In this document: in pieces, positions 17,164 to 31,171 of the stretch
Position numbering within the stretch: position 1 is the first letter of the stretch
Layout: each line of letters starts with the position of its first letter
From: Gammaproteobacteria bacterium
GTDB lineage: Bacteria > Pseudomonadota > Gammaproteobacteria > Natronospirales > REEB76
DNA length: 64,000 bases
Reading direction: 5' to 3'
Assembly: GCA_049698775.1 (NCBI GenBank)
Contig: JBAVYM010000009.1
Location: 5,020-69,019 of the forward strand
The notes under the pieces: generated by a model
The model's input: the letters and a program-made list of their open reading frames with translations, nothing else
What the model was told of the DNA's origin: nothing
Database searches by the model: none
Made by a program: the position numbers and the translations under genes

Positions 17164-17243
17164 CTATCCTGCATCAAACTTGCAAAATTACCCGCTACAT
17201 TCCGCTACAATCTCCGCGGCCCGTAACTCCCGGACGCCTACCC

Positions 17244-18581
17244 ATGCCAAACCAGCGCAGTCTCGGTCTTGCCACCACCACCTCCATTGTACTCGGCAAC
17301 ATGGTGGGCTCGGGGGTGTTCCTGCTGCCCGCTTCGCTCGCGCTGTACGGCGTGTACAGCTTGTGGGGCTGGGGGTTCAGCACTGTCGGCGCGCTGTTGC
17401 TGGCTTGGGTGTTCAGCAGCCTGTCGCGCCGCCTGCCGAAGGCCGGCGGTCCTTATGCTTACACACGCGAAGCGTTCGGCGATTTCGCGGGCTTTACCAT
17501 CGCCTGGATTTACTGGATCAGCATCCTCGCCGCCAACGCCGCCATTGCGGTCGCGTTTGCCAGCTACCTGACCGCGTATTTCCCGGCGTTGTCCGCTGAG
17601 CCGATATACGGCGGCCTGGCGGCCATCGTCGCGCTGTGGGTACTCACCGGACTCAACATCTGGGGTGTGCGTGCGGCAGGGAAAATGCAGCTTATCACCG
17701 TGATCCTCAAACTCGCGCCGCTCTTGGCGCTGGCGATATTCGGTTTCTTTCACTTTGATCCAAAGCTGCTGGAATCCGGCCACCTCAGCGGCTCACCGGT
17801 TTCCGCCATCAACACGGCGGCCGCCTTCACCATGTTCGCGTTCCTGGGACTCGAGTGCGCCACCATCCCCGCCGCGCACGTGAAGAATCCGGAAAAAACC
17901 ATCCCGCGCGCCACGATATTGGGCACGGTGATTGCCGCGGTGTTTTATATCGTGTGCACTACCGTGGTCATGGGCCTGATCCCGAGCGCCACGCTCGCGC
18001 ATTCCACCGCGCCGTTTGCCGACGCCGCCAAACTGATATGGGGAAACTGGGGAGGCTACGTTATCGCCGCAGCCGCACTGATTTCCTGTTTCGGTGCGCT
18101 CAACGGCTGGATCCTGATGCAGGGACAATTCCCCCAAGCGGTAGCGAATGACGGTTTATTTCCACGATTCTTCGCGCGCGAATCACGCCGTGGCACACCA
18201 GCAGTGGGTCTGGCGGTCTCGAGCGTACTGGGCACGCTGCTCATCCTCATGAATTACAGCCACGGACTCGTCGGCATGTTCAACATTATCGTGCTGCTGG
18301 ACACGTTTTTCGTACTGGTGCCGTACATGTTCTGCGCCATGGCCGAAATCGTATTGAGCCGCAATCAAAAACACACTATCAAATCGCCGGTGCGCAGGCT
18401 GGTGCTGGCCTGTCTCGCGTTCGCCTTCGCGCTATGGGCCGCCGCCGGCACCGGTGAGGATTCCCTGTACTGGGGTACGCTGTTGCTGCTCGTGGGACTC
18501 CCCATTTACGTCTGGCAAAAACGACATCAGAAACAGTCCGCCCCAGTTCATGTTGAGAATCTAGATACCAATATCGGCTGA
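17244..18581 (+). CDS. APC-superfamily amino acid/polyamine permease (basic amino acid-polyamine antiporter-like)
   Basis: LGLATTTSIVLGNMVGSGVFLLPASLALYG..., ~12 predicted TM segments, 445 aa. Confidence 0.9.
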   Translation: MPNQRSLGLATTTSIVLGNMVGSGVFLLPASLALYGVYSLWGWGFSTVGALLLAWVFSSLSRRLPKAGGPYAYTREAFGDFAGFTIAWIYWISILAANAAIAVAFASYLTAYFPALSAEPIYGGLAAIVALWVLTGLNIWGVRAAGKMQLITVILKLAPLLALAIFGFFHFDPKLLESGHLSGSPVSAINTAAAFTMFAFLGLECATIPAAHVKNPEKTIPRATILGTVIAAVFYIVCTTVVMGLIPSATLAHSTAPFADAAKLIWGNWGGYVIAAAALISCFGALNGWILMQGQFPQAVANDGLFPRFFARESRRGTPAVGLAVSSVLGTLLILMNYSHGLVGMFNIIVLLDTFFVLVPYMFCAMAEIVLSRNQKHTIKSPVRRLVLACLAFAFALWAAAGTGEDSLYWGTLLLLVGLPIYVWQKRHQKQSAPVHVENLDTNIG

Positions 18582-18586
18582 GTCTC

Positions 18587-19228
18587 TCAGACTGCATCCC
18601 AGAAAAAACGGCCAATTGAAAAACTGGCGATCTCAATGCGATCACCCGGCAACAGCGGCCCTACGCCAGCCGGCGTGCCGGTATAGATCAGATCGCCCGG
18701 CAACAGCCGCCAGTAATGGCTTAGAAATGCAACGATCTCCGCCACCGGAAACAGCATGTCACGGGTGTTGCCCTGCTGGCGCAGTACGTCATTCACACGG
18801 CACTGCATATCAATGTTCTGTATATCCAGATTCGCCGGCCACGCAACGAGATTTCCGATCACCGCGCTGCCGTCGAAAGATTTGGACAACTCCCAGGGCT
18901 GGCCCGCCTGTTTCAGCTTAGCTTGCAGTTCCCGCAACGTGAGATCAATTCCGAGTGTCACACCGGCCACATGATCAAGCGCGTCGCCGGCTGAAATTTC
19001 TTTTCCCTCGCGCCCGATGGCCACTACCAGCTCCAGCTCGTGATGTACGCTGCCCTGGTCTTTGGGCAGCTTCAGAGGCTCGCCGACTGCCACCAGACTG
19101 GTTGCAGGTTTCATGAACACCACCGGCTGCGCCGGTTTCGGCGCGCCCATCTCCTTCGCATGCTCGGCATAATTGCGGCCGATACAGAATATACGTGGTG
19201 GAACTACAGGATGGCTCATATCAGTCAT
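18587..19228 (-). CDS. Fumarylacetoacetate hydrolase (FAH) family protein
   Basis: RIFCIGRNYAEHAKEMG...VVFMKPATSLV...HHELELVVAIG...GVTLGIDLTLRELQ...PWELSKSFDGSA...GDLIYTGTPAGVGPL. Confidence 0.9.
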   Translation of the reverse strand: MTDMSHPVVPPRIFCIGRNYAEHAKEMGAPKPAQPVVFMKPATSLVAVGEPLKLPKDQGSVHHELELVVAIGREGKEISAGDALDHVAGVTLGIDLTLRELQAKLKQAGQPWELSKSFDGSAVIGNLVAWPANLDIQNIDMQCRVNDVLRQQGNTRDMLFPVAEIVAFLSHYWRLLPGDLIYTGTPAGVGPLLPGDRIEIASFSIGRFFWDAV

Positions 19229-19276
19229 GTCTGCGTGTTTACCTGATTCAAATCCGGCAATACGCAGGAGTCAATC

Positions 19277-19591
19277 TCACAAACGATCCAGCGGGCTGAG
19301 CACGCCTTTACCACCCTTGTTCATCACGTGCGTATATATCATGGTGGTGCTCACATCCTTGTGTCCCAGCAATTCCTGCACCGTGCGGATATCGTAACCC
19401 GCCTGCAAGAGATGTGTGGCAAAGGAATGCCGCAGGACATGCAGCGTCTGCGGTTTAAATCCGTCACCGATGTACGGCAGCGCCCGATCCAAGATCACGT
19501 ACCTGGAAAAATCCAGGTACGCCTTCTCGGTGAAGGCCTTCAGCGGCTGGCGCTCGGCGCCTGCGACGGCAAGGATGGACGTATTACTCAT
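19277..19591 (-). pseudogene. Chimeric ORF: topoisomerase IV subunit A (ParC) N-terminal ~48 codons fused in frame to the last ~56 codons of an integron integrase (IntI)
   Basis: N-part [36 protein letters not shown], compared with E. coli ParC ERLALHEFTENAYLNYSMYVIMDRALPFIGDGLKP. C-part [52 protein letters not shown] is the IntI/tyrosine-recombinase box II with catalytic Tyr. Junction ~19441-19450. Confidence 0.75.
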
Positions 19592-19755
19592 GGCTTAACC
19601 CGCGGACAATGCCGGAACCGCGCTATCACGCGGCTTGCGGGCGTCATGATACCGGGTGAAAGCGCCAGTTGTAACAGGGCGTATGCAGAGGCAGAGTTTC
19701 TCTAGGTCGTGCACTGACCTCACGATTCAAACCTCCGCCATGCTAAACTCTTTGA

Positions 19756-19944
19756 ATGAAGGTCAGGGAACTTGTGACCTTGATTGAGAAGGACGGCTGG
19801 AAGCAGGTTCGCCAGAAAGGCAGCCACCGGCAATTTCACCACGTTTCCAAACCCGGCACGGTTACAATCTCAGGCAATCCGGGAGTTGATGTTCCACCGG
19901 GAACATTAAACAGCGTTTTGAAACAGGCCGGCCTTAAAAAGTAG
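19756..19944 (+). CDS. hicA: HicA-family mRNA interferase toxin
   Basis: MKVRELVTLIEKDGWKQVRQKGSHRQFHHVSKPGTVTISGNPGVDVPPGTLNSVLKQAGL. Confidence 0.85.
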   Translation: MKVRELVTLIEKDGWKQVRQKGSHRQFHHVSKPGTVTISGNPGVDVPPGTLNSVLKQAGLKK

Positions 19945-19953
19945 GTGATTCCT

Positions 19954-20172
19954 ATGCGATACATGGTTGTGGTTGAAGAAGGACCATCCAGCTTCGGTGC
20001 CTATGTACCGGATCTTCCGGGCTGCGTGGCCGTCGGAAAATCGCAACAGGAAGTCCTGAAACTTATCCAAGAAGCGATTGAGTTCCACCTGGAAGGAATC
20101 ATGGAGAAAGGGAAATCCATGCCTACACCGCATTCATCCAGCATCTTCGTTGAGATTCATCCAACACAGTAA
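19954..20172 (+). CDS. hicB: HicB-family antitoxin
   Basis: MRYMVVVEEGPSSFGAYVPDLPGCVAVGKSQQEVLKLIQEAIEFHLEGIMEKG. ATG 19954 is preceded by aggtga, and the ORF track starts at GTG 19945. Confidence 0.8.
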   Translation: MRYMVVVEEGPSSFGAYVPDLPGCVAVGKSQQEVLKLIQEAIEFHLEGIMEKGKSMPTPHSSSIFVEIHPTQ

Positions 20173-20315
20173 AATGTAGTGTCTGTTGATTGTTCCCGCG
20201 CATACCAGTGCACGGGAACCAAATTACGATTCTTTGCGCCCACGGTATGCATGGAGTTCATTCAAGAGCAGTCCGGTAACAGTTCGTCCGCAGAAATCTG
20301 GCGCGAACTCGCCTT

Positions 20316-20552
20316 TCATTTCATGGCGGAGTGCGGAACAGCTTTGCGCTCTGCTGCCGGGTGAGTCAGAAACCGTTCCACCTCGGCAGCACCCAGTTCG
20401 CGTGGATACCGCTTGCCGTGGAACAGAATAAATCGCCTGGCCCAATCCACATAAGCATCTTCCGTCCGGATGCTGTAATGCCTGAGCCGGATTGCTTCTC
20501 GAATCTGGTCGAGCAGCTTGAGTGGCTTGGAGACAGTGGTTGGAGAATCCAT
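20316..20552 (-). pseudogene. intI: Integron integrase N-terminal fragment (~65 IntI-like codons, then divergence and stop)
   Basis: LLDQIREAIRLRHYSIRTEDAYVDWARRFILFHGKRYPRELGAAEVERFLTH is the conserved IntI N-terminus. Divergently oriented to the cassette array. Confidence 0.85.
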
Positions 20553-20629
20553 ACGGAAGATTTTAGGCCGCCCTAAAATTCAAATCAAACGGTAAATTGG
20601 CACGAGATGTAGAGCCCGACCTGCTTTTG

Positions 20630-20659
20630 TTGACATTAGACGACAAAGCTCACTAAAAT
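20630..20659 (+). promoter_or_regulatory. Candidate cassette promoter (Pc-like), sigma-70 type
   Basis: TTGACA (20630-20635), 18-nt spacer, TAAAAT (20654-20659), reading toward attI and the cassettes. Confidence 0.55.
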
Positions 20660-20676
20660 CTCTCGGTCTAATTCAA

Positions 20677-20683
20677 GTTAGGC
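20677..20683 (+). other. attI core recombination site (GTTAGGC)
   Basis: GTTRRRY match gttaggc between intI and the first cassette ORF. A nearby inverted repeat ttttagg-ccgc-cctaaaa (20564-20581) contains a TTAGGC-like half site. Confidence 0.5.
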
Positions 20684-20742
20684 CGCAAAAAGTATCTGCT
20701 GTCACATGACCACACCTCCGCGTCCCGCAAATAGGCATATCT

Positions 20743-21156
20743 ATGAGTAAAGCTATTGAGAATCTGAAGTCGGCCCAGCAGCGAGCGATGGCTGGTCGTC
20801 CCAAGGTCGGCGGGTTTCCCTACCTTGCGGAAACGCTTCGCAAAGCGGGTGTAACGCGCAACATCTGGTCGCTGCCCGCCTGCCAAAGCTTGTATTTGAC
20901 CGAGCAAGGCCCGGTCGTGACGCAAGGAAGTCCTCTTATCACCGGCATGGAGGACGTACCGTCATTCAATCAAGATGCTCTCATCACAGCACTGCGGACT
21001 GACCAGGCTGGCGAAAGCACTTTCCCAGAGTTCTTGGTGGCCACTTGGAAGGCGGGCGTCGTAAGCTACGACGTGGATTTCAGCAAAAGGACCGTCACCT
21101 ACTACGGGTCGGGCGGAGAAAGTTATGTCGAGTCGTATCCTGCTGCAAAGTTGTAG
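20743..21156 (+). CDS. Cassette 1: DUF1398-family protein
   Basis: FPYLAETLRKAGV...FPEFLVATWKAGVVSYDVDFSKRTVTYYGSGGESYVESYP. Confidence 0.7.
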   Translation: MSKAIENLKSAQQRAMAGRPKVGGFPYLAETLRKAGVTRNIWSLPACQSLYLTEQGPVVTQGSPLITGMEDVPSFNQDALITALRTDQAGESTFPEFLVATWKAGVVSYDVDFSKRTVTYYGSGGESYVESYPAAKL

Positions 21157-21184
21157 GCGCATTGCGATGATCAAGACGGTTGCG

Positions 21185-21196
21185 GCCTAACAATTC
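21185..21196 (+). repeat. attC of cassette 1, left part (R'' gcctaac + aattc), interrupted by the IS
   Basis: gcctaacaattc aligns with ggctaacaactc (attC4) and gcataacagttc (attC2). It continues at 22722. Confidence 0.65.
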
Positions 21197-21538
21197 TGTA
21201 AGAGACTTCCTGTCAACAGTGCGTGCTTGACTCTCTCGTCTTAAGCTTTCAGGCGTTTGCTCGTCATCATCGCGTTGTGCGCCTTGACGGGAGGCGGCAT
21301 TGCCAGTGCGATGCGATGTTCAACGGTGCCAGACTGCATTTCTGTAAACGGTCTTGTTGAGCCGATTCTGTCGGCTCGGACCAAGGTATAAACCGCGCCC
21401 GGAGACCTCGTTCGTCCAGCGGTGTCGCCCGTGACCGGGGATCAACCGGAACACGTGGATGACGACCGGATAGTTAGTCAGGTTCTCTCTGGGTGGGTCT
21501 GACCCGTGACTACCGCTTCGCGCTGACGTAGAACCCAT
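21197..21538 (-). ncRNA. Putative bridge RNA / seekRNA encoded in the IS 3' non-coding arm
   Basis: No credible ORF. Position (downstream of the recombinase) matches IS1111-group guide RNAs. Compared with the paralogous copy at 25243-25497, hairpin 21359-21377 (GAGCC...GGCTC) versus 25402-25420 (GCACC...GGTGC) shows two compensatory pair changes. Internal ttctgtaa (21339-21346) equals core + IS terminus (21194-21201). Exact RNA ends and strand are not determinable from sequence. Confidence 0.5.
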
Positions 21539-22636
21539 TCATATCATGGCAGCGACCGTGCGAGCCTGTTTGCCGGCCGGGCGCTGCACCATGGGGTGCT
21601 TCAGCCAGGCGTCGGCGTCGTAGGCCTCGTCGTGCGCGAGCATCGCCCACAGTTGCCGCGCATGCTTGTTGGCGATAGCCACCAGCACTTTGCCAAATGG
21701 CATCCGGCAGGCCAACTGGCGGATCCAGATCTGCTCGGGCGTGGACTTCTCGGCGCTCACTGCTTGGGCACGCTGCAGGCTGCTGCGTGCGCCCTGGATC
21801 AGCAGCGTGCGCAGGTACGCATCGCCCCGGCAGCTGATGGTGCCAAGGCGCGTGTGCCCGCCACTCGAGTGCTGCGTCGGCACCAAACCGAGCCAGGCCG
21901 CGAGCTGCCGTCCGTTGCGAAAATCCTTGGCTGAGCCGAGAGTCGCGACTGCGGCGTCGGCCGTGAGCGGCCCGATCCCTGTGATGGCGCGCAGCCGCAC
22001 GCAGCGTTCATCGGCCTTGGCGTGCGCTTCAATGCGTGCATCGCAGGCACCGATACGCTCCCGCACCTCGGCCCAGTGCGCACCGAGCTCATTCAGGAGT
22101 TCGTGCGTTTCCGCAGGCAGCGCCGCGAGCTGCTCCGGATTCGCCAGCACACGACGTAGCGCCACCTCGCTCTTCGCCACCACGATCCCGAATTCGGCGA
22201 GCAGTCCGCGCAGGCGGTTGCCGATTGCGAGGCTCTCCACTTTGTAGCCCTCGCGCACCCGGTGCCACGACAGCCGCGCTTGTTGCTCGACGCTCTTCAC
22301 CGGCACAAACCGCATGTTGCCCTGCCGGGCGGCCGTGGCAATCGCCTCGGCATCGCTGCGGTCGTTCTTGGCTGTGCTGTTCTTGCGAAAGGGCTTCACG
22401 AACTGCGCCGCCATCAGCCGCGGCTGCAGGCCATAGTCCAGGCAGCGCCGTGCCCAGTGATGCGCCCCACTGCAGGCCTCCATCGCCACCACCGTACCGC
22501 CCGGTACCTGGGCGAGCCACACGCTAAACGCCTCACGCCCCAAATCCCGCCAGCCCAGTACGCGGCCTGCCGCGTCCACCTCGCACACCGAAAACACGCT
22601 CTTTGCCAAATCCACACCGATGGTTATAGTGTTCAT
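21539..22636 (-). CDS. IS110/IS1111-family DEDD transposase (recombinase), 365 aa
   Basis: MNTITIGVDLAKSVFSV...VVAMEACSGAHHW...KNDRSDAEAIATAA (DEDD RuvC-like), C-terminal Transposase_20 region ITGIGPLTADAAVA...GLVPTQHSSGGHTRLGTISCRGDAYLR. ATG 22636 is preceded by gaggaag. Confidence 0.9.
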   Translation of the reverse strand: MNTITIGVDLAKSVFSVCEVDAAGRVLGWRDLGREAFSVWLAQVPGGTVVAMEACSGAHHWARRCLDYGLQPRLMAAQFVKPFRKNSTAKNDRSDAEAIATAARQGNMRFVPVKSVEQQARLSWHRVREGYKVESLAIGNRLRGLLAEFGIVVAKSEVALRRVLANPEQLAALPAETHELLNELGAHWAEVRERIGACDARIEAHAKADERCVRLRAITGIGPLTADAAVATLGSAKDFRNGRQLAAWLGLVPTQHSSGGHTRLGTISCRGDAYLRTLLIQGARSSLQRAQAVSAEKSTPEQIWIRQLACRMPFGKVLVAIANKHARQLWAMLAHDEAYDADAWLKHPMVQRPAGKQARTVAAMI

Positions 22637-22721
22637 GGAGACTTCCTCTTCTGCTGACGGTTGTATACACACACCATCATGGCCCTCGAGGCCGTAGGGA
22701 GCAGGAAGTCTCTTTTTACTC

Positions 22722-22767
22722 AATCAAGCGGACGCGGTTCCCGCGCCGCTTATTTCAAGCGTTATGC
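22722..22767 (+). repeat. attC of cassette 1, right part (L''-L'-R' gttatgc)
   Basis: aatcaagcgg-a-cgcgg ttc ccgcgccgctt atttcaagc gttatgc, the same architecture as the other attCs. Confidence 0.7.
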
Positions 22768-22785
22768 CCCTCAAGGAGAGTTTCG

Positions 22786-23133
22786 ATGATCCCGCTGCAA
22801 GAGGTTGATGTTCACACCGACAAAAAGGTGTTCTATAAGCTGCATCTTGTCGCACCAACTGGCGCGGCCCCTTTCTCTTCCGAGGTTCTCGTTTACGACT
22901 CCGAGTTCAATCCTGCTTTTGCATCCACCGTGTCGTTTCATCAACATTTCCCAGACGCTGCTGCTGCTTTCGCCCACGCTATCAGTTGGGTCAAAGGTTA
23001 TAGCCATGCCCATGGTTACACCATCAACCGCATCGACAATCCGTGCAATTGCGAGTTTCTTTCGCAAGCCGACCAACAGCAAACCATTAACGCGGCAGGG
23101 TTCACGTTACAGGTGCAGGTAAACGGGGCATAA
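22786..23133 (+). CDS. Cassette 2: hypothetical protein (115 aa), no family recognised
   Basis: Strong RBS aaggagag 6 nt upstream. The ORF fills the cassette and ends inside attC2. Confidence 0.6.
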   Translation: MIPLQEVDVHTDKKVFYKLHLVAPTGAAPFSSEVLVYDSEFNPAFASTVSFHQHFPDAAAAFAHAISWVKGYSHAHGYTINRIDNPCNCEFLSQADQQQTINAAGFTLQVQVNGA

Positions 23134-23183
23134 CAGTTCATTCAAGCGGACGGCTACGCCGCCGCTTAATTCAGGCGTTAGGC
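23128..23183 (+). repeat. attC of cassette 2
   Basis: gcataac agttcattc aagcgg-a-cggc tac gccgccgctt aattcaggc gttaggc (R'' 23128-23134, R' 23177-23183). Confidence 0.8.
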
Positions 23184-23217
23184 CGCGCAAGCCACCGCCT
23201 CAGCAGGGTCGCCCTAT

Positions 23218-23646
23218 ATGAACACCCGGAAGCAGATCGAAGAACATATTGCCACTCAGCCCGAACCAAAACGCGGCGATATGCAAGAACTGCACCGCGT
23301 CATTCTGGCACAAATGCCAAAGTGCAAGTTGTGGTTCCTAGATGGCAAAGACGAACAGGGCAAGGTTGTCTCCAACCCAAACATAGGATACGGACTGCAG
23401 ATCATCAAATATGCCGACGGAAGAACCAAGGACTTCTATCAAATTGGCATGAGCGCAAACACGACAGGAATCTCCATCTACATCCTTGGCATCGAAGACA
23501 AGAAGTATTTGGCCCAAGCGTATGGAAAGGAGCTCGGCAAGGCGAGTGTCACCGGCTATTGCATCAAGTTCAAAAAGCTCAAGGATATAGACACTGACGT
23601 ACTCGTCGCCGCAATACGGTATGGAGTTGAGCAAACAAGCATCTAA
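23218..23646 (+). CDS. Cassette 3: DUF1801 (YdhG-like) domain protein
   Basis: MNTRKQIEEHIATQPEPKRGDMQELHRVILAQMPKCKLWF...GISIYILG...ASVTGYCIKFKKLKDIDTDVLVAAIRYG. Confidence 0.7.
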   Translation: MNTRKQIEEHIATQPEPKRGDMQELHRVILAQMPKCKLWFLDGKDEQGKVVSNPNIGYGLQIIKYADGRTKDFYQIGMSANTTGISIYILGIEDKKYLAQAYGKELGKASVTGYCIKFKKLKDIDTDVLVAAIRYGVEQTSI

Positions 23647-23670
23647 CAACTCGGTCGAGGCACGAGCGCG

Positions 23671-23727
23671 GCCTAACCCCTCGTTCAAGGCGGACGGCTG
23701 CGCCGCCGCTTAACTCCAGCGTTAGCC
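23671..23727 (+). repeat. attC of cassette 3
   Basis: gcctaac ccctcgttc aaggcgg-a-cggc tgc gccgccgctt aactccagc gttagcc. Confidence 0.75.
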
Positions 23728-23750
23728 TCCTTCCAATCATTGGGACACAA

Positions 23751-24659
23751 ATGAAACGCCTTCTTCTCGTTGCATTGCTCGCAATCTCGTTCACGGCCAG
23801 CGCCGTCGTTATTCGTAGCGATGTCAAGGATGCCAAGTATCGAGTTCCGGCTTCGGCATTTCCCGCGCTGGTCGACATGCCTGGTGAGGGACATGGCGTC
23901 CTAATTGCACCTCAGTGGGTCGTAACCGCAGCTCACGCGGCGCCAATGCAAGGCATGGAAGAAGACGTAACTATCGGCGGTGTGGCGCGCAAGGTCAAAC
24001 GTGTCATCACTTATCCGGGCTACAAGAGACTGCCTGACCAGCTGGTCAAGCAGGCCTTGGCATCCGGCGATTTCTCCAAGGCGCATGCATTTCTTGCGTC
24101 GTCCAACGATATCGCGCTGATCGAACTTGTGTCTCCAGTAACGGATGTAGCTCCCGTTCCCCTCTATCGCGGGAACAAAGAGGTGGGGATGACCGTAGAG
24201 CTTGTGGGCAAGGGCGCCACGGGCAATGGCACCGAAGGCCAGGATCCTCACAGCTCGCATCGCACCGTCTTGCGCCGTGCCTTCAACGTGATTGTCGGTG
24301 CCGACGCCCGCTATGTTTGGTATCGTTTTGACCCGCCTCCATCTGCTTTGCCGCTTGAAGGCGCGACGGGAAGCGGCGACAGCGGCGGCCCCTTGCTCAT
24401 CGGAAATGGGAGTTCAAGGCAACTCGTCGGCCTGGCCTCTTGGAGCAAATATCCACCGGGCCATCCATTTTTGAGCAAATATGCACCGGGTCGCCCATTC
24501 GTGGAAGGCCTCTACGGCGAAATCGTGTACGCCGTTCGCATCTCAAGCTACATCCAATGGATAGAAGGCGTGATATCTGTGCCCGCGAGTGCCCGTACTC
24601 GGCTTCAGCCAGCGGAGGCTAACAACTCAATCCAGCGGACGCGCTATGCGCGCCGCTGA
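23751..24659 (+). CDS. Cassette 4: secreted trypsin-like (S1 family) serine protease
   Basis: Signal peptide MKRLLLVALLAISFTASA. Catalytic triad contexts WVVTAAHA (His), NDIALIEL (Asp), GDSGGPLL (Ser). The last ~14 codons are encoded by attC4. Confidence 0.85.
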   Translation: MKRLLLVALLAISFTASAVVIRSDVKDAKYRVPASAFPALVDMPGEGHGVLIAPQWVVTAAHAAPMQGMEEDVTIGGVARKVKRVITYPGYKRLPDQLVKQALASGDFSKAHAFLASSNDIALIELVSPVTDVAPVPLYRGNKEVGMTVELVGKGATGNGTEGQDPHSSHRTVLRRAFNVIVGADARYVWYRFDPPPSALPLEGATGSGDSGGPLLIGNGSSRQLVGLASWSKYPPGHPFLSKYAPGRPFVEGLYGEIVYAVRISSYIQWIEGVISVPASARTRLQPAEANNSIQRTRYARR

Positions 24660-24672
24660 TTTCCAGTTAGCG
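24617..24672 (+). repeat. attC of cassette 4
   Basis: ggctaac aactcaatc cagcgg-a-cgcgc tat gcgcgccgctg atttcca gttagcg. Confidence 0.75.
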
Positions 24673-24690
24673 CCCACAGTAACGTTTCGG

Positions 24691-24719
24691 TTGATACGTA
24701 ACTACATTGTAGTTATAAT
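24691..24719 (+). promoter_or_regulatory. Cassette-internal sigma-70 promoter with palindromic operator for the brnTA cassette
   Basis: TTGATA (24691-24696), 17 nt, TATAAT (24714-24719). The spacer contains a 7-bp-arm palindrome aactaca-t-tgtagtt (24700-24714). Confidence 0.6.
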
Positions 24720-24725
24720 CTGTGC

Positions 24726-25004
24726 ATGACCGAGCTGCGCTTCGAGTGGGATCCGGCCAAGGCCGCCGCAAACATCAAGAAGCATGGCATCGGCTTCGAT
24801 GAAGCCAAGTCCGTGTTTGCTGACGAGCGGGCCAAGCTCATCGCTGATCCGCAGCATTCGGATAACGAGGACCGGTTCGTCCTGCTCGGGCTAAGCACAA
24901 GGCTCAGATTGCTTGTCGTTTGCCACTGTTATCGCAGCAAGAGCAACACGATCCGAATCATTTCGGCCAGAAAGGCTACGGCCACTGAGTCTCGGCAATA
25001 CTGA
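24726..25004 (+). CDS. brnT: Cassette 5: BrnT (DUF497) toxin
   Basis: MTELRFEWDPAKAAANIKKHGIGFDEAKSVFADE...RFVLLGLS...LLVVCHCYR...IRIISARKAT. Confidence 0.85.
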   Translation: MTELRFEWDPAKAAANIKKHGIGFDEAKSVFADERAKLIADPQHSDNEDRFVLLGLSTRLRLLVVCHCYRSKSNTIRIISARKATATESRQY

Positions 25005-25015
25005 TAGGTGCTCCC

Positions 25016-25225
25016 ATGCGCAAAGAATACGATTTCTCCAAAGCCAAGAAGAACCCCTACGCTCCTCAGCTCAAGAAGCAAATCACTATTCGCTTGGACG
25101 GTGATGCGATTGATTACTTCAAGTCAGTTTCGGAGGAGGTCGGGATCCCATACCAGAGCCTGATCAACCTTTACTTGCGAGATTGCGCTGCCACTCACAA
25201 GCAGCTCGACTTGTCGTGGAAGTAA
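25016..25225 (+). CDS. brnA: Cassette 5: BrnA-like (CopG/RHH) antitoxin
   Basis: MRKEYDFSKAKKNPYAPQLKKQITIRLDGDAIDYFKSVSEEVGIPYQSLINLYLRDCA. Confidence 0.8.
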   Translation: MRKEYDFSKAKKNPYAPQLKKQITIRLDGDAIDYFKSVSEEVGIPYQSLINLYLRDCAATHKQLDLSWK

Positions 25226-25242
25226 GCGGGCGCTGACAGTTC

Positions 25243-25497
25243 CGTAAGAGACTTCCTGTCAATACCGCGCGCCTCATGTTCTGGCCTTGAGCTTTCAGGC
25301 ATTTGCTGTTCAGCGTGGTGTTCTCGTGGCCGAATGCGGCTTCGTCAGTTCGATGCGGTGTTGCAACGTTGCCAGACTGCATTTCCGTAAGCGGTCTTGT
25401 TGCACCGATGGTGCGGGTGCGGACCAGAGTATAAACCGCGTCCGGAGACCTCATTCATCCAGCGGTTTCGTCGGTGTTTCGGAGATCGGCCACCCGG
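25243..25497 (-). mobile_element. Orphan, diverged copy of the IS1111-attC 3' non-coding (guide-RNA) arm, with no transposase; it interrupts the decayed attC of cassette 5
   Basis: Block-wise homology to 21197-~21450: cgtaagagacttcctgtcaa, ttgagctttcaggcatttgct, ttgccagactgcatttccgtaagcggtcttgtt..., ggaccagagtataaaccgcgtccggagacctc. Preceded by the attC start cgctgacagttc. It ends against the 3' end of ltaE. Confidence 0.7.
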
Positions 25498-25514
25498 AAA
25501 GAAGGGCGGCGCAT

Positions 25515-26528
25515 TCAGCCGGCGTGGAAATACGCACGGAATGCCGCAATGACCCGCTCCACATCTGCCGCGCTGACATCCAGGTGCGTAACCAAGCGCA
25601 AATTAGCATTGGGCAGGATCAGAATACTGGCGTTCTTCAAGTGTGCGGTCAGTGGCTGCACATGCTCCGCTGCTATGCTCGCAAAAACCATGTTGGTCTG
25701 CACGGCGGCCGGATCAATTTTTATCTGCTTTATCTGTGCCAGACCTTCAGCAAGTTTCCGGGCATTGGCGTGATCTTCCGCCAAACGTTCAACGTGGTGT
25801 TCCAGCGCGTATAAGCCCGCCGCGGCCAGGACGCCCGCCTGACGCATACCGCCGCCGAGAATCTTACGCGCGCGGTGCGCTTTGCGGATCAGCTCGCGCT
25901 TGCCCACCAGCACCGTGCCGACCGGACAGCCAAGCCCTTTTGAAAGACAGATGGAAACGCTGTCAAAATGGCGGGTGATGTCCTTTACCGGCACGCCGAG
26001 TTTCACCGCCGCGTTGAACACCCGCGCGCCGTCCAGATGGATGCCAAGTCCATGCTGGCGTGCAAAGTCCGCGGCATCTTTGAGATAGGCCAGCGGCAAC
26101 ACGCGGCCGTTCTGGGTGTTTTCCAGCACCAGCAGGCGCGTGCGGGCGAAATGCGCATCATCGGGTTTGATGGCAGCCTTGATTTTTTTCAGGTCCAGCG
26201 TGCCATCGGCTTCATATTCAACGGGGCACGGCCACAAACTTCCCAGTACCGCCGCGCCACCGGCTTCGTATTTGTAGCTGTGGCCGAGTGAGCCGATGAT
26301 GAATTCCTCACCACGTTCACAGTGCGCCATAAGCGCTGCGAGATTGGATTGCGTACCGCTCGGGAAGAACAGACCGGCCTCGTGGCCGGTCAGCTCCGCG
26401 AGTTTTTCCTGCAGGCGATTGACCGTCGGATCGTCGCCGAACACGTCATCGCCTACCTCGGCCGCGGCCATGGCGGCGCGCATCGCCGCCGTCGGCCGCG
26501 TCACCGTATCACTGCGCAAGTCAACCAT
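25515..26528 (-). CDS. ltaE: Low-specificity L-threonine aldolase
   Basis: MVDLRSDTVTRPTAAMRAAMAAAEVGDDVFGDDPTVNRLQEKLAELTGHEAGLFFPSGTQSNL...LENTQNGRV...HLDGARVFNAAV...DSVSICLSKGLG. Confidence 0.9.
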   Translation of the reverse strand: MVDLRSDTVTRPTAAMRAAMAAAEVGDDVFGDDPTVNRLQEKLAELTGHEAGLFFPSGTQSNLAALMAHCERGEEFIIGSLGHSYKYEAGGAAVLGSLWPCPVEYEADGTLDLKKIKAAIKPDDAHFARTRLLVLENTQNGRVLPLAYLKDAADFARQHGLGIHLDGARVFNAAVKLGVPVKDITRHFDSVSICLSKGLGCPVGTVLVGKRELIRKAHRARKILGGGMRQAGVLAAAGLYALEHHVERLAEDHANARKLAEGLAQIKQIKIDPAAVQTNMVFASIAAEHVQPLTAHLKNASILILPNANLRLVTHLDVSAADVERVIAAFRAYFHAG

Positions 26529-26600: not shown

Positions 26601-27173
26601 TTAACCTCCGCCACTCTTCGCGGCAGGCGCCTTGCTCTGCTGCTGTTTCTGCGCCTGCGCCCAATCTTTGTCCAGGGCATCGGTCAGGCCTTGAGTCACA
26701 TCGTATTTGCCCGAGGCATACACCGCACCAGCGGCATCCTTGCTGAGCAGGATGTCGTAACGGTGGGTCTTGGCATATTGGTCCAGCACCTTGCCCAGTT
26801 CCTGTTCGATGGGTTGCAATAATTCCTGACGGCGCTGCTCCAGATCCTGGCGGCTCATCAGCACGTATTGCTGCAGGTTATTGCGGCTGTCATCGTAGCT
26901 CTTCTGCAATTGCTGGTAATTCGCGGCTTTTGAATCGGTCTTGTCCAGTTGCTGCTTCAATACGTTCAGCTTGTTATTCTGATCGTTGGCCTGGTCCTGG
27001 AATTTCTTGACGATGGTCTGCAATTGCTGGTTGGCTTGCTGGCCCGCCTGGGATTTGGCGAGCACTTCCTGAAGATTGACGACGCCGATGCGCGGCGCTT
27101 CCGCGGCTTGCGCCGAAGTCATTGAAAACGCAGCGACCGCCAGTACGCCGGCGGCAAGAAATCCGTAACGCAT
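26601..27173 (-). CDS. OmpH/Skp-family periplasmic chaperone
   Basis: Internal ATG 27173 gives MRYGFLAAGVLAVAAFSMTSAQAAEAPRIGVVNLQEVLAKSQAGQQANQQLQ..., coiled-coil Q/K/D-rich body. Confidence 0.8.
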   Translation of the reverse strand: MRYGFLAAGVLAVAAFSMTSAQAAEAPRIGVVNLQEVLAKSQAGQQANQQLQTIVKKFQDQANDQNNKLNVLKQQLDKTDSKAANYQQLQKSYDDSRNNLQQYVLMSRQDLEQRRQELLQPIEQELGKVLDQYAKTHRYDILLSKDAAGAVYASGKYDVTQGLTDALDKDWAQAQKQQQSKAPAAKSGGG

Positions 27174-27292
27174 GATGGAATACTCCTGAAATGTGGGAAT
27201 AGACAAAGCCCGCCGGGTGGCGGGGCAGGTGGAAAGCACGTCTAGGATAACGCACCCAGGGCGGTGCGGACTACCGCACCGCCCCGCGATGC

Positions 27293-27694
27293 TCAGGCTT
27301 TTTTCAGGTTCACAAACAGATTGATGGTAAAAAACAGGATGCCGATAACCGCCAACACTGCGCCCACCGCCACCACCGGTATGGCTCCCACATGGCCGCT
27401 ATTCACGAAAAACAGGCCGATGACAAATATCGGCAGACCGATATTGTGCAACCAGAAATGGGCCAACCCCAGCCAGTGGCCGCCGGCTCGGGGGCATAGC
27501 CAGTAAATGACACCCGCAAGACCCAGCGAAGCCCAGCCCAACAGGTTGATGTGGGCGTGCACCGGGGCGTACTGGAATTGATGGCTCAGGCCCATGACCA
27601 GACCGAAAATCACCCCGATCAGCAGATACAGCACGGCGATTTTCAGCCAGATTGGCGCCATGCGAGCGCCGCGCTGTTCGATAAGACTGTCCAT
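27293..27694 (-). CDS. Small His-rich 4-TM membrane protein (133 aa), function unknown
   Basis: ATG 27694 is preceded by a perfect aaggag. MDSLIEQRGARMAPIWLKIAVLYLLIGVIFGLVMG...PVHAHINLLGWASLGLAGVIYWL...HFWLHNIGLPIFVIGLFF. Confidence 0.6.
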   Translation of the reverse strand: MDSLIEQRGARMAPIWLKIAVLYLLIGVIFGLVMGLSHQFQYAPVHAHINLLGWASLGLAGVIYWLCPRAGGHWLGLAHFWLHNIGLPIFVIGLFFVNSGHVGAIPVVAVGAVLAVIGILFFTINLFVNLKKA

Positions 27695-27847
27695 AACTAA
27701 CTCCTTGTCTTGATTTGCAATTTCGTTTACGGGCGCCGCCGTCTGACGGCGCCCGGCGCAGCATATCAGAGCGGCGGTTGAACCCACAGCCTGCTCTGGT
27801 GTCATACTTGCCACCCTTTTCGCTTTCATAACAAAAGGAATATACCC

Positions 27848-30800
27848 ATGTTCCGGAACTGCTTTTCCCTTCGGGCCGTATGGCTGCCCGCTTTGATCCT
27901 CCTAGGTTTGGCGGCAGGCACCGCCCAAGCCAGCAATACCCTCATGCGCTATCCCACTCTGCACGGTGATTCCGTGGTGTTTGAGGCGCATAGCAATCTG
28001 TGGGAAGTGAACCGTGCCGGCGGTACCGCCCGCCGGCTCACCACCGACCCCGGTTTCGATATCATGCCGCGCTTCTCGCCAGACGGGCAGTGGATCGCCT
28101 TCACCGGCCAGTACCGCGGCAACACCGACGTGTATGTGATTCCCGCGGGCGGCGGCAACGCCAAGCGCCTCACCTTCCATTCCGACGTGGTGGCAAACGC
28201 GCCGCTGCGCTGGGGACCGGACAACATGGTGGTCACCTGGACGCCGGACAGCAAAAACATCGTGTTCCTGTCACGCCGCACCACCTTCAATTCCTGGTTC
28301 GGCCAGTTATTCACGGTGCCGCTAGACGGCGGACTGCCCACACAACTGCCGCTGCCCAAAGGCGGCATGCTGACCTATTCGCCAGACGGACAATCCATCG
28401 CTTATAACCGCATCTTCCGCAACTTCCGCACCTGGAAGCGCTACAAGGGTGGTTTGGCGCAGGACGTGTGGCTGTACAACTTCGCCACCAAGAAAAGCAC
28501 GCGTGTCACCGATTATCCCGGCGCCGACATGGACCCCATGTGGTACGGGCATGTGATTTATTTCATTTCCGACCGCGGCCCGGAGGAACGCAAAAATCTT
28601 TGGGTCTATGATCTGAACACCAAACAGTTCCGCCAGGTCACGCACTTCAAGGATTTCGACATTGACTGGCCGAGCCTCGGCGACACCGGTATCGCGTTCC
28701 AGGATGGCGGCGATCTCTACGTCATGGACCTGCCGTCCGAACAACTGCACAAGCTCGACGTGAGCGTACCGGACGACGGTAGCCGCACCGGTCTGCGCTG
28801 GGTGGACGCCTCCAAATACATCCAGGTGATGGATACCGCAGGCGACACCAATCTGGCGCTTTCGCCCAATGGCAAGCGCGCGCTGTTGCAGGCACGCGGC
28901 GACATCTGGTCGCTGCCGAAAGAGCACGGTCCAAGCCGTGACTTGACCGACACCAGCAACTCCGAGGAGGAATATCCTGCCTGGTCGCCGGACGGCAAAT
29001 GGATCACCTACGCCACCGACATTAGTGGCGAAGACCAGATCGCGGTGCGTCCGGCCGATAATTCCGGCCCGCAACAAACTCTGACCAATTTCAAAACCGG
29101 CTATTTCTACGGTCCCAGTTGGTCGCCCGCAAGCGACATGCTCGCGTTCTCGGACAACGAGCATCGCCTGTGGTATCTCAACGTGAAGAGCCGCAAGCTC
29201 ACGCAGGTGGCGCAGGACAAGTACAGCGAGATGCACGACTACAGTTGGTCGCCGGACGGACGCTGGCTCGCTTACAGCGTCACCGCGCCGAACCAGATGC
29301 GCCAGATTTATCTCTACAATCTGGCGGACGACCAAGCGACGCTCATTAGCTCGCCCATGGACAACGATCAGGGTCCGGTGTTCGATCCGGATGGCAAGTA
29401 CCTGTATTTCGTATCCGCACGTCACGAGAACCCGACCTTCAGCCAAAGCGAGTTCAACATCGCGACCTTGCAGATGGACGGCGTGTATGTCACCACGCTG
29501 ACCAAGGATGAGGCTTCGCCGTTCGCGCCGCGCAATGACGAAGGCACGCTTTCGGAACAGAAAGAGCAGAAGCCCGGCGAATGGAAACCGGGCAACAGCA
29601 AGCCCATCAAGATTGATCTCGATGGCCTGATGGCGCGCGCCGTACCGCTGCCGATTCCGGCAGCCAATATCTCGGGGCTTACCGCGACGCCGGGCCACGT
29701 GTTCTACAGCACCACACCCAACCAAACCATCGCCGGACCGCTGACCGGCATGCAGCCGGAATTGCATGTCTATGATCTCGCTAAGCGTGAGGACAAGACG
29801 CTGGTGACGGGCCTGGCCGGCTGGACGCTTTCAGCCGACGGCTCCACGATTCTCTACAACAACCCCGACGGCAAACTGTTCACGCAGGACGCCATGCCGG
29901 ATGCGAAACCCAAGCCGCTCGACACCTCGCACATGTGGGTGCAGATCAATCCGGTCGCGGAATGGAACGAGATGTATCACATGGCCTGGCGGCTGGACCG
30001 GGATTTCTTCGTCAACCGCAAGATGAACGGTGTGGACTGGGATGCGGTGCAGGCCAAGTACTCGAAGCTCCTGCCGCTCATGGGTTCGCGTGAGGATTTG
30101 AATTATTTCATCGGCCAGACCATCGGCGAACTCAGCAACTCCCACACCTATGTGGGTGGCGGCGACATGGATTACGCCGTGCACCGCACGCCGACGGGCT
30201 TGCTGGGCGTGGATTTCGGCCTGGATGAAAATTCCGGCCGCTATTACTTCAAAACGATTTACCCCGGCGACAACACTCGCGAAAACTACCGCTCGCCCTT
30301 GACTGAGCCGGGCGTAAATGTGAAAACCGGCGATTATCTGCTGGCGGTGAATGGCCGCGAGTTGAAAGCACCCGTGAATCCCTACAGCCTATTCGTGGAC
30401 ACCGCCAACGATGACGTGGAACTCACCATCGCGGACAATGCCGCCGGCAAGAACACGCGCCGGGTGCTGATCAAGACCATCCCCAATGAACTGGACATCC
30501 GCCTCAAGGCCTGGATAGATCATAATCGCGAAGAGGTAAACAAGCTCTCAGGCGGCCAGATCGGTTACATCTATATGTCCGATATGGAAGCCCAGGGCAT
30601 GGACCAGTTCATCCGCCAGTTCTACCCGCAGCTCACCAAGCAGGGCCTGATCATAGATGACCGCTACAACGGCGGCGGTTTCATTGACCAGATCGTGCTG
30701 GAGCGACTGCGGCGGGTATTGATCGGCATGAACAGCGACCGTCAGCAGATCGCCTCGCCGATCCCGCAGCAGGTGAGCAACAGTTACAAGGTGACGCTCA

Positions 30801-31171
30801 TCAACCACTACTCGGCGTCCGACGGCGACATCTTCCCGTATTTCTTCAGGAAATACGGCTTGGGGCCGTTGATCGGCACCCGCACTTGGGGCGGGGTGCG
30901 TGGCATCCGCGGGCCATGGCCGCTGCTCGACAACGGCTACATCACCATCCCCGAAAGCACCATGTACGGCCTCGACTCCCAGTGGGTAATCGAAAACCAT
31001 GGCGTGGATCCGGACATGGAAGTGGACGATCTGCCGGAGGATGTTATGCGCGGCTACGACGCACAACTGCACACCGCGGTGGATTACCTGATGGGGAAAA
31101 TCAAGGCGCATCCGCTGCACCTGCCGCCGCCGCCGCTGATCCCGGCCTATCCGCCGCCGGGCCACGACTGA
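27848..31171 (+). CDS. Tricorn protease homolog (beta-propellers + PDZ + S41 peptidase), secreted, 1107 aa
   Basis: Signal peptide, then LMRYPTLHGDSVVFEAHSNLWEVNRAGGTARRLTTDPGFDIMPRFSPDGQWIAFTGQYRGNTDVYVIPAGGG. C-terminal S41 region ...INHYSASDGDIFPYFFRKYGLGPLIGTRTWGG. Confidence 0.85.
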   Translation: MFRNCFSLRAVWLPALILLGLAAGTAQASNTLMRYPTLHGDSVVFEAHSNLWEVNRAGGTARRLTTDPGFDIMPRFSPDGQWIAFTGQYRGNTDVYVIPAGGGNAKRLTFHSDVVANAPLRWGPDNMVVTWTPDSKNIVFLSRRTTFNSWFGQLFTVPLDGGLPTQLPLPKGGMLTYSPDGQSIAYNRIFRNFRTWKRYKGGLAQDVWLYNFATKKSTRVTDYPGADMDPMWYGHVIYFISDRGPEERKNLWVYDLNTKQFRQVTHFKDFDIDWPSLGDTGIAFQDGGDLYVMDLPSEQLHKLDVSVPDDGSRTGLRWVDASKYIQVMDTAGDTNLALSPNGKRALLQARGDIWSLPKEHGPSRDLTDTSNSEEEYPAWSPDGKWITYATDISGEDQIAVRPADNSGPQQTLTNFKTGYFYGPSWSPASDMLAFSDNEHRLWYLNVKSRKLTQVAQDKYSEMHDYSWSPDGRWLAYSVTAPNQMRQIYLYNLADDQATLISSPMDNDQGPVFDPDGKYLYFVSARHENPTFSQSEFNIATLQMDGVYVTTLTKDEASPFAPRNDEGTLSEQKEQKPGEWKPGNSKPIKIDLDGLMARAVPLPIPAANISGLTATPGHVFYSTTPNQTIAGPLTGMQPELHVYDLAKREDKTLVTGLAGWTLSADGSTILYNNPDGKLFTQDAMPDAKPKPLDTSHMWVQINPVAEWNEMYHMAWRLDRDFFVNRKMNGVDWDAVQAKYSKLLPLMGSREDLNYFIGQTIGELSNSHTYVGGGDMDYAVHRTPTGLLGVDFGLDENSGRYYFKTIYPGDNTRENYRSPLTEPGVNVKTGDYLLAVNGRELKAPVNPYSLFVDTANDDVELTIADNAAGKNTRRVLIKTIPNELDIRLKAWIDHNREEVNKLSGGQIGYIYMSDMEAQGMDQFIRQFYPQLTKQGLIIDDRYNGGGFIDQIVLERLRRVLIGMNSDRQQIASPIPQQVSNSYKVTLINHYSASDGDIFPYFFRKYGLGPLIGTRTWGGVRGIRGPWPLLDNGYITIPESTMYGLDSQWVIENHGVDPDMEVDDLPEDVMRGYDAQLHTAVDYLMGKIKAHPLHLPPPPLIPAYPPPGHD

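Follow-up and report, generated by a model that had tools for sequence, protein, structure and literature searches.

The intI gene of a chromosomal integron in a Gammaproteobacteria bacterium (assembly GCA_049698775.1, contig JBAVYM010000009.1, positions 5,020 to 69,019; these 64,000 nt are referred to as the window) is gutted. Between its two ends lies a filler of ~890 bp: what remains of an antitoxin gene, the complete toxin-antitoxin pair hicAB, and the beginning of parC, the gene of topoisomerase IV subunit A, with its promoter and its initial 48 codons, which are fused in frame to the tail of intI. We put the probability at roughly 0.7 that the locus is a mosaic intI pseudogene holding the fossil of a neighbourhood of intI and parC, a case of gene decay rather than a novel protein or system.

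The gutted intI and its fusion to the 5' end of parC

The intact IntI of a related locus, L058, was used as reference (333 aa; 493.7 bits against the integron integrase model TIGR02249, which has a cut-off of 265 bits). Mapping with TIGR02249 placed an N-terminal fragment at 20343–20552 (minus strand), equal to IntI residues 16–76 (PF13495; TIGR02249 positions 1–61) and 62% identical to the L058 protein, and a C-terminal fragment at 19277–19456 (minus strand), equal to residues 275–333 (TIGR02249 positions 257–315) and 85% identical. The frame of the former continues past the fragment to a stop at 20316, giving an open reading frame (ORF) of 78 aa (20316–20552, minus strand). Instead of one full-length match to TIGR02249 there are thus two, of 108.6 and 59.2 bits, both below the cut-off. 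The N-terminal SAM-like domain is retained (PF13495, 63.7 bits) together with the C-terminal region carrying box II, HVLRH, and the tyrosine of MIYTHV (PF00589 positions 125–169), while 198 central codons are absent when compared with L058 (IntI residues 77–274; TIGR02249 positions 62–256 are unmatched). The lost part takes in the box I arginine and the IntI-specific additional domain. A previous interpretation made from the letters of the window, here called the sequence-only reading, had located the two pieces of the gutted gene correctly; its estimate of roughly 190 missing codons holds as to the loss and is replaced as to the count. The integrase is predicted to be inactive and intI to be a decaying pseudogene at the end of an otherwise classical chromosomal integron, and since the integrase would be dead the cassettes would be mobile only if another IntI acts in trans. 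Gutting of IntI free of any insert was also seen repeatedly in unrelated metagenomes, as clean internal deletions that join the N-terminal domain to the box II region (P0324, P0261 and L003 75–614).

The C-terminal fragment forms the end of a chimeric ORF of 104 aa (19277–19591, minus strand), in which parC codons 1–48 are followed in frame by the last 57–59 codons of intI, and which terminates at the native IntI stop. Residues 13–53 correspond to positions 2–42 of the NCBIfam model TIGR01062, parC_Gneg (E 2.1e-9), and residues 46–104 to TIGR02249 positions 257–315 (E 3.9e-31). This split agrees with the in-frame chimera proposed in the sequence-only reading and provides the alignment of 19448–19591 to ParC in a proper search. 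The same two parts were recognised by BLASTN against annotated plasmid and chromid records, where 19325–19434 is matched as 'integron integrase' and 19461–19534 as 'parC'.

For parC, comparisons were drawn from the loci of relatives (L001–L004, L057–L060 etc.). The 48 codons in the window (19448–19591, minus strand) form a 5' orphan of the MSNTS type, matched by TIGR01062 at positions 2–42 of 735 only, with 36.1 bits against a cut-off of 628.9, and hence far from a full-length ParC. The orphan ranks ParC over GyrA (E 2e-9 versus 1e-4) and shows 81% identity with the N-terminal end of the genuine ParC of L004, the full-length gene of which also begins with MSNTS. Two motifs of otherwise ParC-invariant positions are altered, YSMYV to FSRYV and GDGLKP to GDGFKP. 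At 19507–19530 (minus strand) the orphan holds a perfect 10-bp hairpin, CGTACCTGGA-TTTT-TCCAGGTACG, perfected by the change of M to R; in true parC copies one mismatch interrupts this palindrome, and the hairpin may be due to chance. An attC-like fold of the parC' segment was considered and rejected, as the segment folds only to this one local hairpin.

Upstream of the orphan, the intergenic region between parC' and hicA (19592–19755) contains a parC-type promoter on the minus strand, for which a promoter scan identified a -35 box (GTTACA, 19675–19670) and a -10 box (TATCAT, 19651–19646), and presumably also the hicAB promoter on the plus strand. The box GGTATCAT stands without variation 51–55 nt upstream of the ATG, both in four orphans (window, L001, L002 and L060) and ahead of the true parC of L004. 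Since the parC-type promoter is kept, as had been suggested from the sequence, transcription of the chimera is plausible. The 104-aa chimera may thus be transcribed, but in all likelihood as a by-product without function.

At the right junction parC passes into intI within Lys-Pro(-Val) codons that are common to the two genes and read in the same frame in each, a microhomology of 6–9 nt (AAGCCGGTG in parC; AAGCCGGCG or AAGCCAGTT in intI). At this place the true parC of the clade reads GGC CTG AAG CCG GTG CAG CGG and intI reads AAG CCG GCG ACG CCG CAT (L058) or AAG CCA GTT ACC CCG CAC (L003), compared with TTT AAA CCG CAG ACG CTG CAT for the chimera of the window and CTT AAA ACG CAG ACG CCG CAT for that of L001. 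The Lys and Pro codons at 19451–19456 may come from either parent. A junction within codons shared in the same frame makes the in-frame fusion accidental, with no need for selection, and is in line with the illegitimate-recombination scar that had been proposed.

The arrangement is not confined to one assembly. L001, a contig of another organism from a JGI metagenome, shows 91% nucleotide identity over 1210 bp and repeats the arrangement intI', antitoxin remnant, hicB, hicA, promoter, parC' and 'intI, with both junctions in common and with substitutions of its own in each. L061, a Logan assembly of the run SRR27973342, is 100% identical over 19528–21654, including the left junction. The check for misassembly advised in the sequence-only reading is thereby answered, since the identity to L061 (left junction) and the junctions shared with L001 (both) exclude it.

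When comparing the window with L001, the parts of the block were found to differ in how they have changed. HicA shows 97% aa identity (4 synonymous and 2 nonsynonymous codon changes) and HicB 98.6% (3 and 1), and the 7 synonymous and 3 nonsynonymous changes of the pair suggest that hicAB is kept by purifying selection. The corresponding figures are 5 and 4 for parC' and 2 and 8 for the IntI tail shared by the two. The chimera of L001 carries a premature stop, giving a product of 63 aa followed by a decayed tail; the L001 sequence stops 98 nt past the truncated IntI tail, and this end beyond the IntI fragment gave no informative match. At the nucleotide level both intI fragments (20343–20552 and 19375–19450) have diverged by 13–15%, in comparison with only 4–8% for the antitoxin remnant, the spacer, the promoter region and parC'. 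In the N-terminal fragment the changes are mostly synonymous (21 versus 14 nonsynonymous), a putative signature of divergence while intI was still functional.

The hicAB block and integrons beside parC in related loci

The intact hicA toxin gene (19756–19944, plus strand, 62 aa; PF07927, 78 bits) is followed after a gap of 9 nt by the antitoxin gene hicB (19954–20172, plus strand, 72 aa; PF15919, 49.4 bits), for which the ATG at 19954 was taken as the start (the mechanical ORF start is a GTG at 19945). Both are above the Pfam cut-offs, and together they are probably a working addiction module with working promoters, able to stabilise the cassette array. The spacer following hicB (20173–20251) forms a short stem-loop with a folding z-score of -0.57, and the possibility that the hicAB block is a gene cassette was rejected, no attC-like imperfect palindrome being found after hicB. 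Beyond the spacer lies what is left of the 5' part of a ParE-associated antitoxin gene (20252–20343, plus strand, MEFIQEQSGNSSSAEIWRELAFHFMAE..., residues ~3–39 of 61), which is cut off by the N-terminal fragment of intI and is 57% identical at the aa level to the antitoxin found beside parC, in a pair with parE, in L003 and L060. The gap in intI had been described as filled by hicAB; the pair is indeed there and intact but is not the sole filler, as this second antitoxin remnant had been overlooked, and the filler is therefore a mosaic.

In a scan of metagenomes with HicA, 80 loci were listed. Among these matches the best HicA was 85% identical, close hicAB homologues adjoin intI in 7 of the 80 loci, and no further copy of the hicAB-parC' block was present. 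In L072 (8983–10402) a hicAB homologue of ~80% identity lies 52 bp upstream of an intact intI, in divergent orientation, and in L134 (3–476) another of ~80% begins 10 bp after the intI stop, the hicAB family of the window being in this way tied repeatedly to integron integrase genes outside cassettes.

Bio-informatic comparison of the parC loci suggests that in related uncultured Gammaproteobacteria an integron, or what remains of one, is located directly upstream of parC and that cargo, mostly toxin-antitoxin genes, and 5' ends of parC gather in between. In L058 and L059 an intact IntI gene is followed after 20 bp by an MSNTS-type orphan, a hicB remnant (78% to the HicB of the window), an Unstab antitoxin gene and the true parC. 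L003 has an internally deleted intI, an orphan, parE with its antitoxin and the true parC, and L060 an N-terminal intI remnant, a promoter, an orphan, parE with its antitoxin and the true parC. An Unstab antitoxin gene, an orphan, a Rce1-like gene and the true parC make up L002, and in L004 attC-like repeats and small reverse-strand ORFs precede a true parC with MSNTS start and GGTATCAT box. L057 consists of a cassette array, a parC core of 36 nt, a Rce1 unit, an orphan, a second Rce1 unit and the true parC. The block of the window is built of the same parts, namely antitoxin remnant, hicAB, promoter and MSNTS orphan. In the related loci the working parC has a start and promoter that differ from those of the orphan and were supplied with the inserted cargo. 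The orphan is usually closest to the parC of its own genome (94% in L060, 98% in L057 and 80% in L003), which would indicate gene conversion or duplication in situ.

Within L057 (2204–3999) a tandem duplication of 916 bp with 95% identity, comprising the Rce1-like gene, the parC promoter and the first 50 parC codons, is found directly upstream of the true parC, and a third copy of the 36-nt core stands ahead of it, abutting an attC-like repeat. Joining by IntI at this place was rejected, as 9 unrelated nt stand between the GTTGGGC core and the stretch homologous to parC.

The search for orphans was performed with the 48 ParC-like residues in a word-indexed search that favours short proteins, and it returned short proteins only, namely the L001 chimera and several ParC N-termini ending near GDGLKPVQ. 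With the 48-aa ParC query no orphan was found in any of 53 ordinary single-copy parC loci of species-representative genomes.

Integron setting and cassette array

The integron platform (20553–20683) holds a Pint-like promoter (20588–20560, minus strand) and a strong Pc-like promoter of the form TTGACA-18-TAAAAT (20630–20659, plus strand), both identified by promoter scan, as well as an attI core, GTTAGGC, read from the sequence at 20677–20683. Past this core the window and L001 are unrelated, the divergence starting where an attI crossover point is expected. The cassette array (20677–25537, plus strand) encodes a DUF1398 protein, an IS110-family element, proteins of 115 and 142 aa, a trypsin-like protein of 302 aa and a BrnT-like protein, and judged from the repeats its cassettes are set apart by attC-like elements with CTAAC...GTTAGGC ends. 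A GTTRRRY attI core, divergent promoters and cassettes with attC-like elements are thus all present. The IS110-family element is complete (21187–22775; transposase 21539–22723, NF033542, 317 bits) and lies within the first attC of the array, and an end of it only, ~245 bp and 77–83% identical, is duplicated at the far end (25233–25476). The cassette at 24726–25004 (plus strand, MTELRFEWDPAKAAANIKKHGIGFDEA...) encodes what we take to be a BrnT-like toxin; with it the array would hold a second toxin-antitoxin module in addition to hicAB.

Synteny with L142 and L143, from a soil-metagenome relative, shows that the integron occupies a slot, 19240–25537, between a gene for an FAA hydrolase (78% identical) and an aminotransferase gene. 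The flanks are syntenic on both sides, over 17191–19239 and over 25538–26528 and 26681–30836. In this relative, which has no integron, the same slot (L142 5455–7980) contains a PemK pair, a Y1 transposase (REP-associated/IS200-like) and an ORF of 156 aa; the slot is therefore variable and unrelated to parC. No second ParC- or GyrA-like sequence was found across the 64-kb window, which extends from the chimera 19 kb to one side and 43 kb to the other. The sequence-only reading had seen in the fusion the duplicated 5' end of an essential gene; a local duplication of the resident gene appears unlikely, given the window without a parC, the variable slot and the recurrence of such blocks elsewhere.

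Origin of the mosaic and its significance

The reading that we favour, of a mosaic pseudogene with the fossil of an intI-parC neighbourhood, proposes that the mosaic was assembled in a lineage in which an integron stood immediately upstream of parC. Microhomology-mediated unequal exchange or tandem duplication, in a locus with the order intI, cargo, parC, would have joined intI codon ~276 with parC codon ~47, making the chimera, with a functional copy of parC still in place downstream of it. The gutting would then have been finished by a deletion that began at IntI codon ~76 and ended inside the antitoxin gene, after which the gutted allele would have come to its present locus together with the integron or, alternatively, through recombination in the intI arms. 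We infer these three steps from sequence, and they start from what is directly observed: the gutted intI, the microhomology at the right junction, the block shared with L001 and its parts being native to intI-parC boundaries elsewhere.

Several points weigh against this history. The intI arms are about twice as diverged from L001 as the insert, for which vertical descent from one gutted ancestor with neutral decay would be insufficient; because the arms are the more diverged, extra recombination or gene conversion is needed, and either the insert moved between intI alleles via the intI arms or the arms were converted by other copies of intI. The left junction is without clear microhomology, and the postulated intermediate, with chimera, cargo and full parC, occurs in no sequence found. 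A copy taken from the host's own parC locus is also a possible source of the insert.

This last explanation, in which microhomology-mediated repair of a broken intI took in a copy from the resident parC locus (hicAB, promoter and 48 codons) in the lineage of the window, would account for the microhomology, for the orphans elsewhere being most similar to the parC of their own genome, and for the Logan contig L061 ending at 19528 inside parC', as is expected if the k-mers recur in the sample. It is nevertheless unlikely, as the block and its two junctions are also present in L001, beside intI arms with mostly synonymous divergence, and therefore not private to the lineage of the window; moreover, there is no parC within the 19 kb and 43 kb surrounding the chimera, and homologues of the antitoxin remnant and of hicB are found specifically at intI-parC boundaries elsewhere. 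That the chimera is instead a functional small protein expressed from the parC promoter, a decoy in the form of the ParC N-terminal arm or a regulator in the form of the IntI C-terminus, could be argued from the ORF being open to the native IntI stop behind a plausible promoter and from the 5 synonymous versus 4 nonsynonymous changes in its parC part. Set against the stop after 63 aa and the decayed tail in L001, the substitutions at ParC-invariant positions and the loss of the IntI box I arginine and DNA-binding domains, this appears highly improbable. In addition, when the complete chimera of 104 aa was compared by HMMER with 1.84 billion representative proteins, none was seen to match both halves, the matches being dominated by IntI tails, with a best score of 121 bits to IntI tails only and nothing at E 1e-30. 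Least credible is an assembly artefact in which parC reads were joined to intI reads in a chimeric contig: both halves are conserved and repeated in metagenomes and no independent contig of the same organism crosses 19450, but the same junction, with its own substitutions, in another sample and organism (L001) and the exact match of L061 over more than 2 kb leave hardly any room for it.

A more directed origin has also been considered, in which the modules of promoter and parC 5' end are site-specific integrative units that insert at the KPVQ-coding core of parC and, in the window, at a look-alike site in intI, perhaps by means of IntI. All orphans found lie in loci that have integron parts upstream, as opposed to none in the 53 other parC loci, several orphans end at AAGCCGGTGCAG, every cargo type has its own parC start and promoter, and in L057 three successive copies of the core flank the Rce1 units. 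The orphan ends scatter, however, from codon ~37 to codon ~83, the units differ at their left ends, as seen at hicB between L058 and the window, neither an attC-like fold nor a GTT crossover motif is present, unequal crossing-over explains the repeat in L057, and the orphan search is biased to short proteins. A strict site-specific crossover was rejected on account of the varying end points, and this origin as a whole is improbable. A related proposal, which we regard as speculative and rather improbable, is that in the clade whose integron abuts parC small cargo modules, each bringing a promoter and a 5' end of parC, insert recurrently at the KPVQ core and displace the prior 5' ends as orphans, forming an integron-associated '5'-end replacement' array; the junction in the window would then be a misfire on the KPVT of intI, and the allele, which kills the integrase and is stabilised by hicAB, would spread from integron to integron via the intI arms.

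When compared with known systems, the locus shows likenesses to several and is identical to none of those compared. In one survey about a third of intI genes were pseudogenes, including ones with major insertions or deletions (Nemergut et al. 2008, PMC2426708), and CALIN elements or cassette clusters beside intI pseudogenes have been documented (Cury et al. 2016, PMC4889954). As in these, the integrase of the window is lost by a major internal deletion or insertion while attI and the array persist; unlike them, the gap holds foreign DNA in which an essential gene is represented by its promoter and its 5' end, the latter in frame with the IntI tail. Chromosomal integrons of the sedentary kind are known to contain toxin-antitoxin systems (Richard et al. 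2024, PMC13108822). The window likewise has an intact type II hicAB pair embedded in its integron, but this is located inside the integrase gene and not in a cassette, with no attC detectable. Such modules in sedentary chromosomal integrons had reportedly been described before.

Islands specific to dusA are said to insert at the 5' end of the gene and to supply a replacement 5' end. An orphan 5' fragment together with a replacement 5' end is also the pattern in L002, L003, L057, L058/L059 and L060, whereas the modules there are without an integrase, their junctions are spread over codons ~37 to ~83 and they have no left end in common; the window itself differs further in that no parC body is restored. 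Homology-facilitated illegitimate recombination has reportedly been described as well, and the join in the window, within 6–9 nt common to both parents and with an essential gene as possible homologous anchor, resembles microhomology-mediated events of this kind, with the difference that the mechanism in the window is deduced from the sequence. A literature search found no description of a chromosomal integron abutting parC, of recurrent parC 5' orphans or of a parC'-'intI fusion.

Annotators should label the 104-aa ORF a pseudogene fusion, neither recombinase nor topoisomerase. The locus documents a case of integron integrase death in which a fragment of a neighbouring essential gene is carried along as the fossil of a former address. 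Should the recurrence of parC 5' orphans be the outcome of a directed process, of which there is a small chance, addiction modules would have a means of invading integrons and freezing them, and DNA could be inserted in an essential gene while the cell survives.

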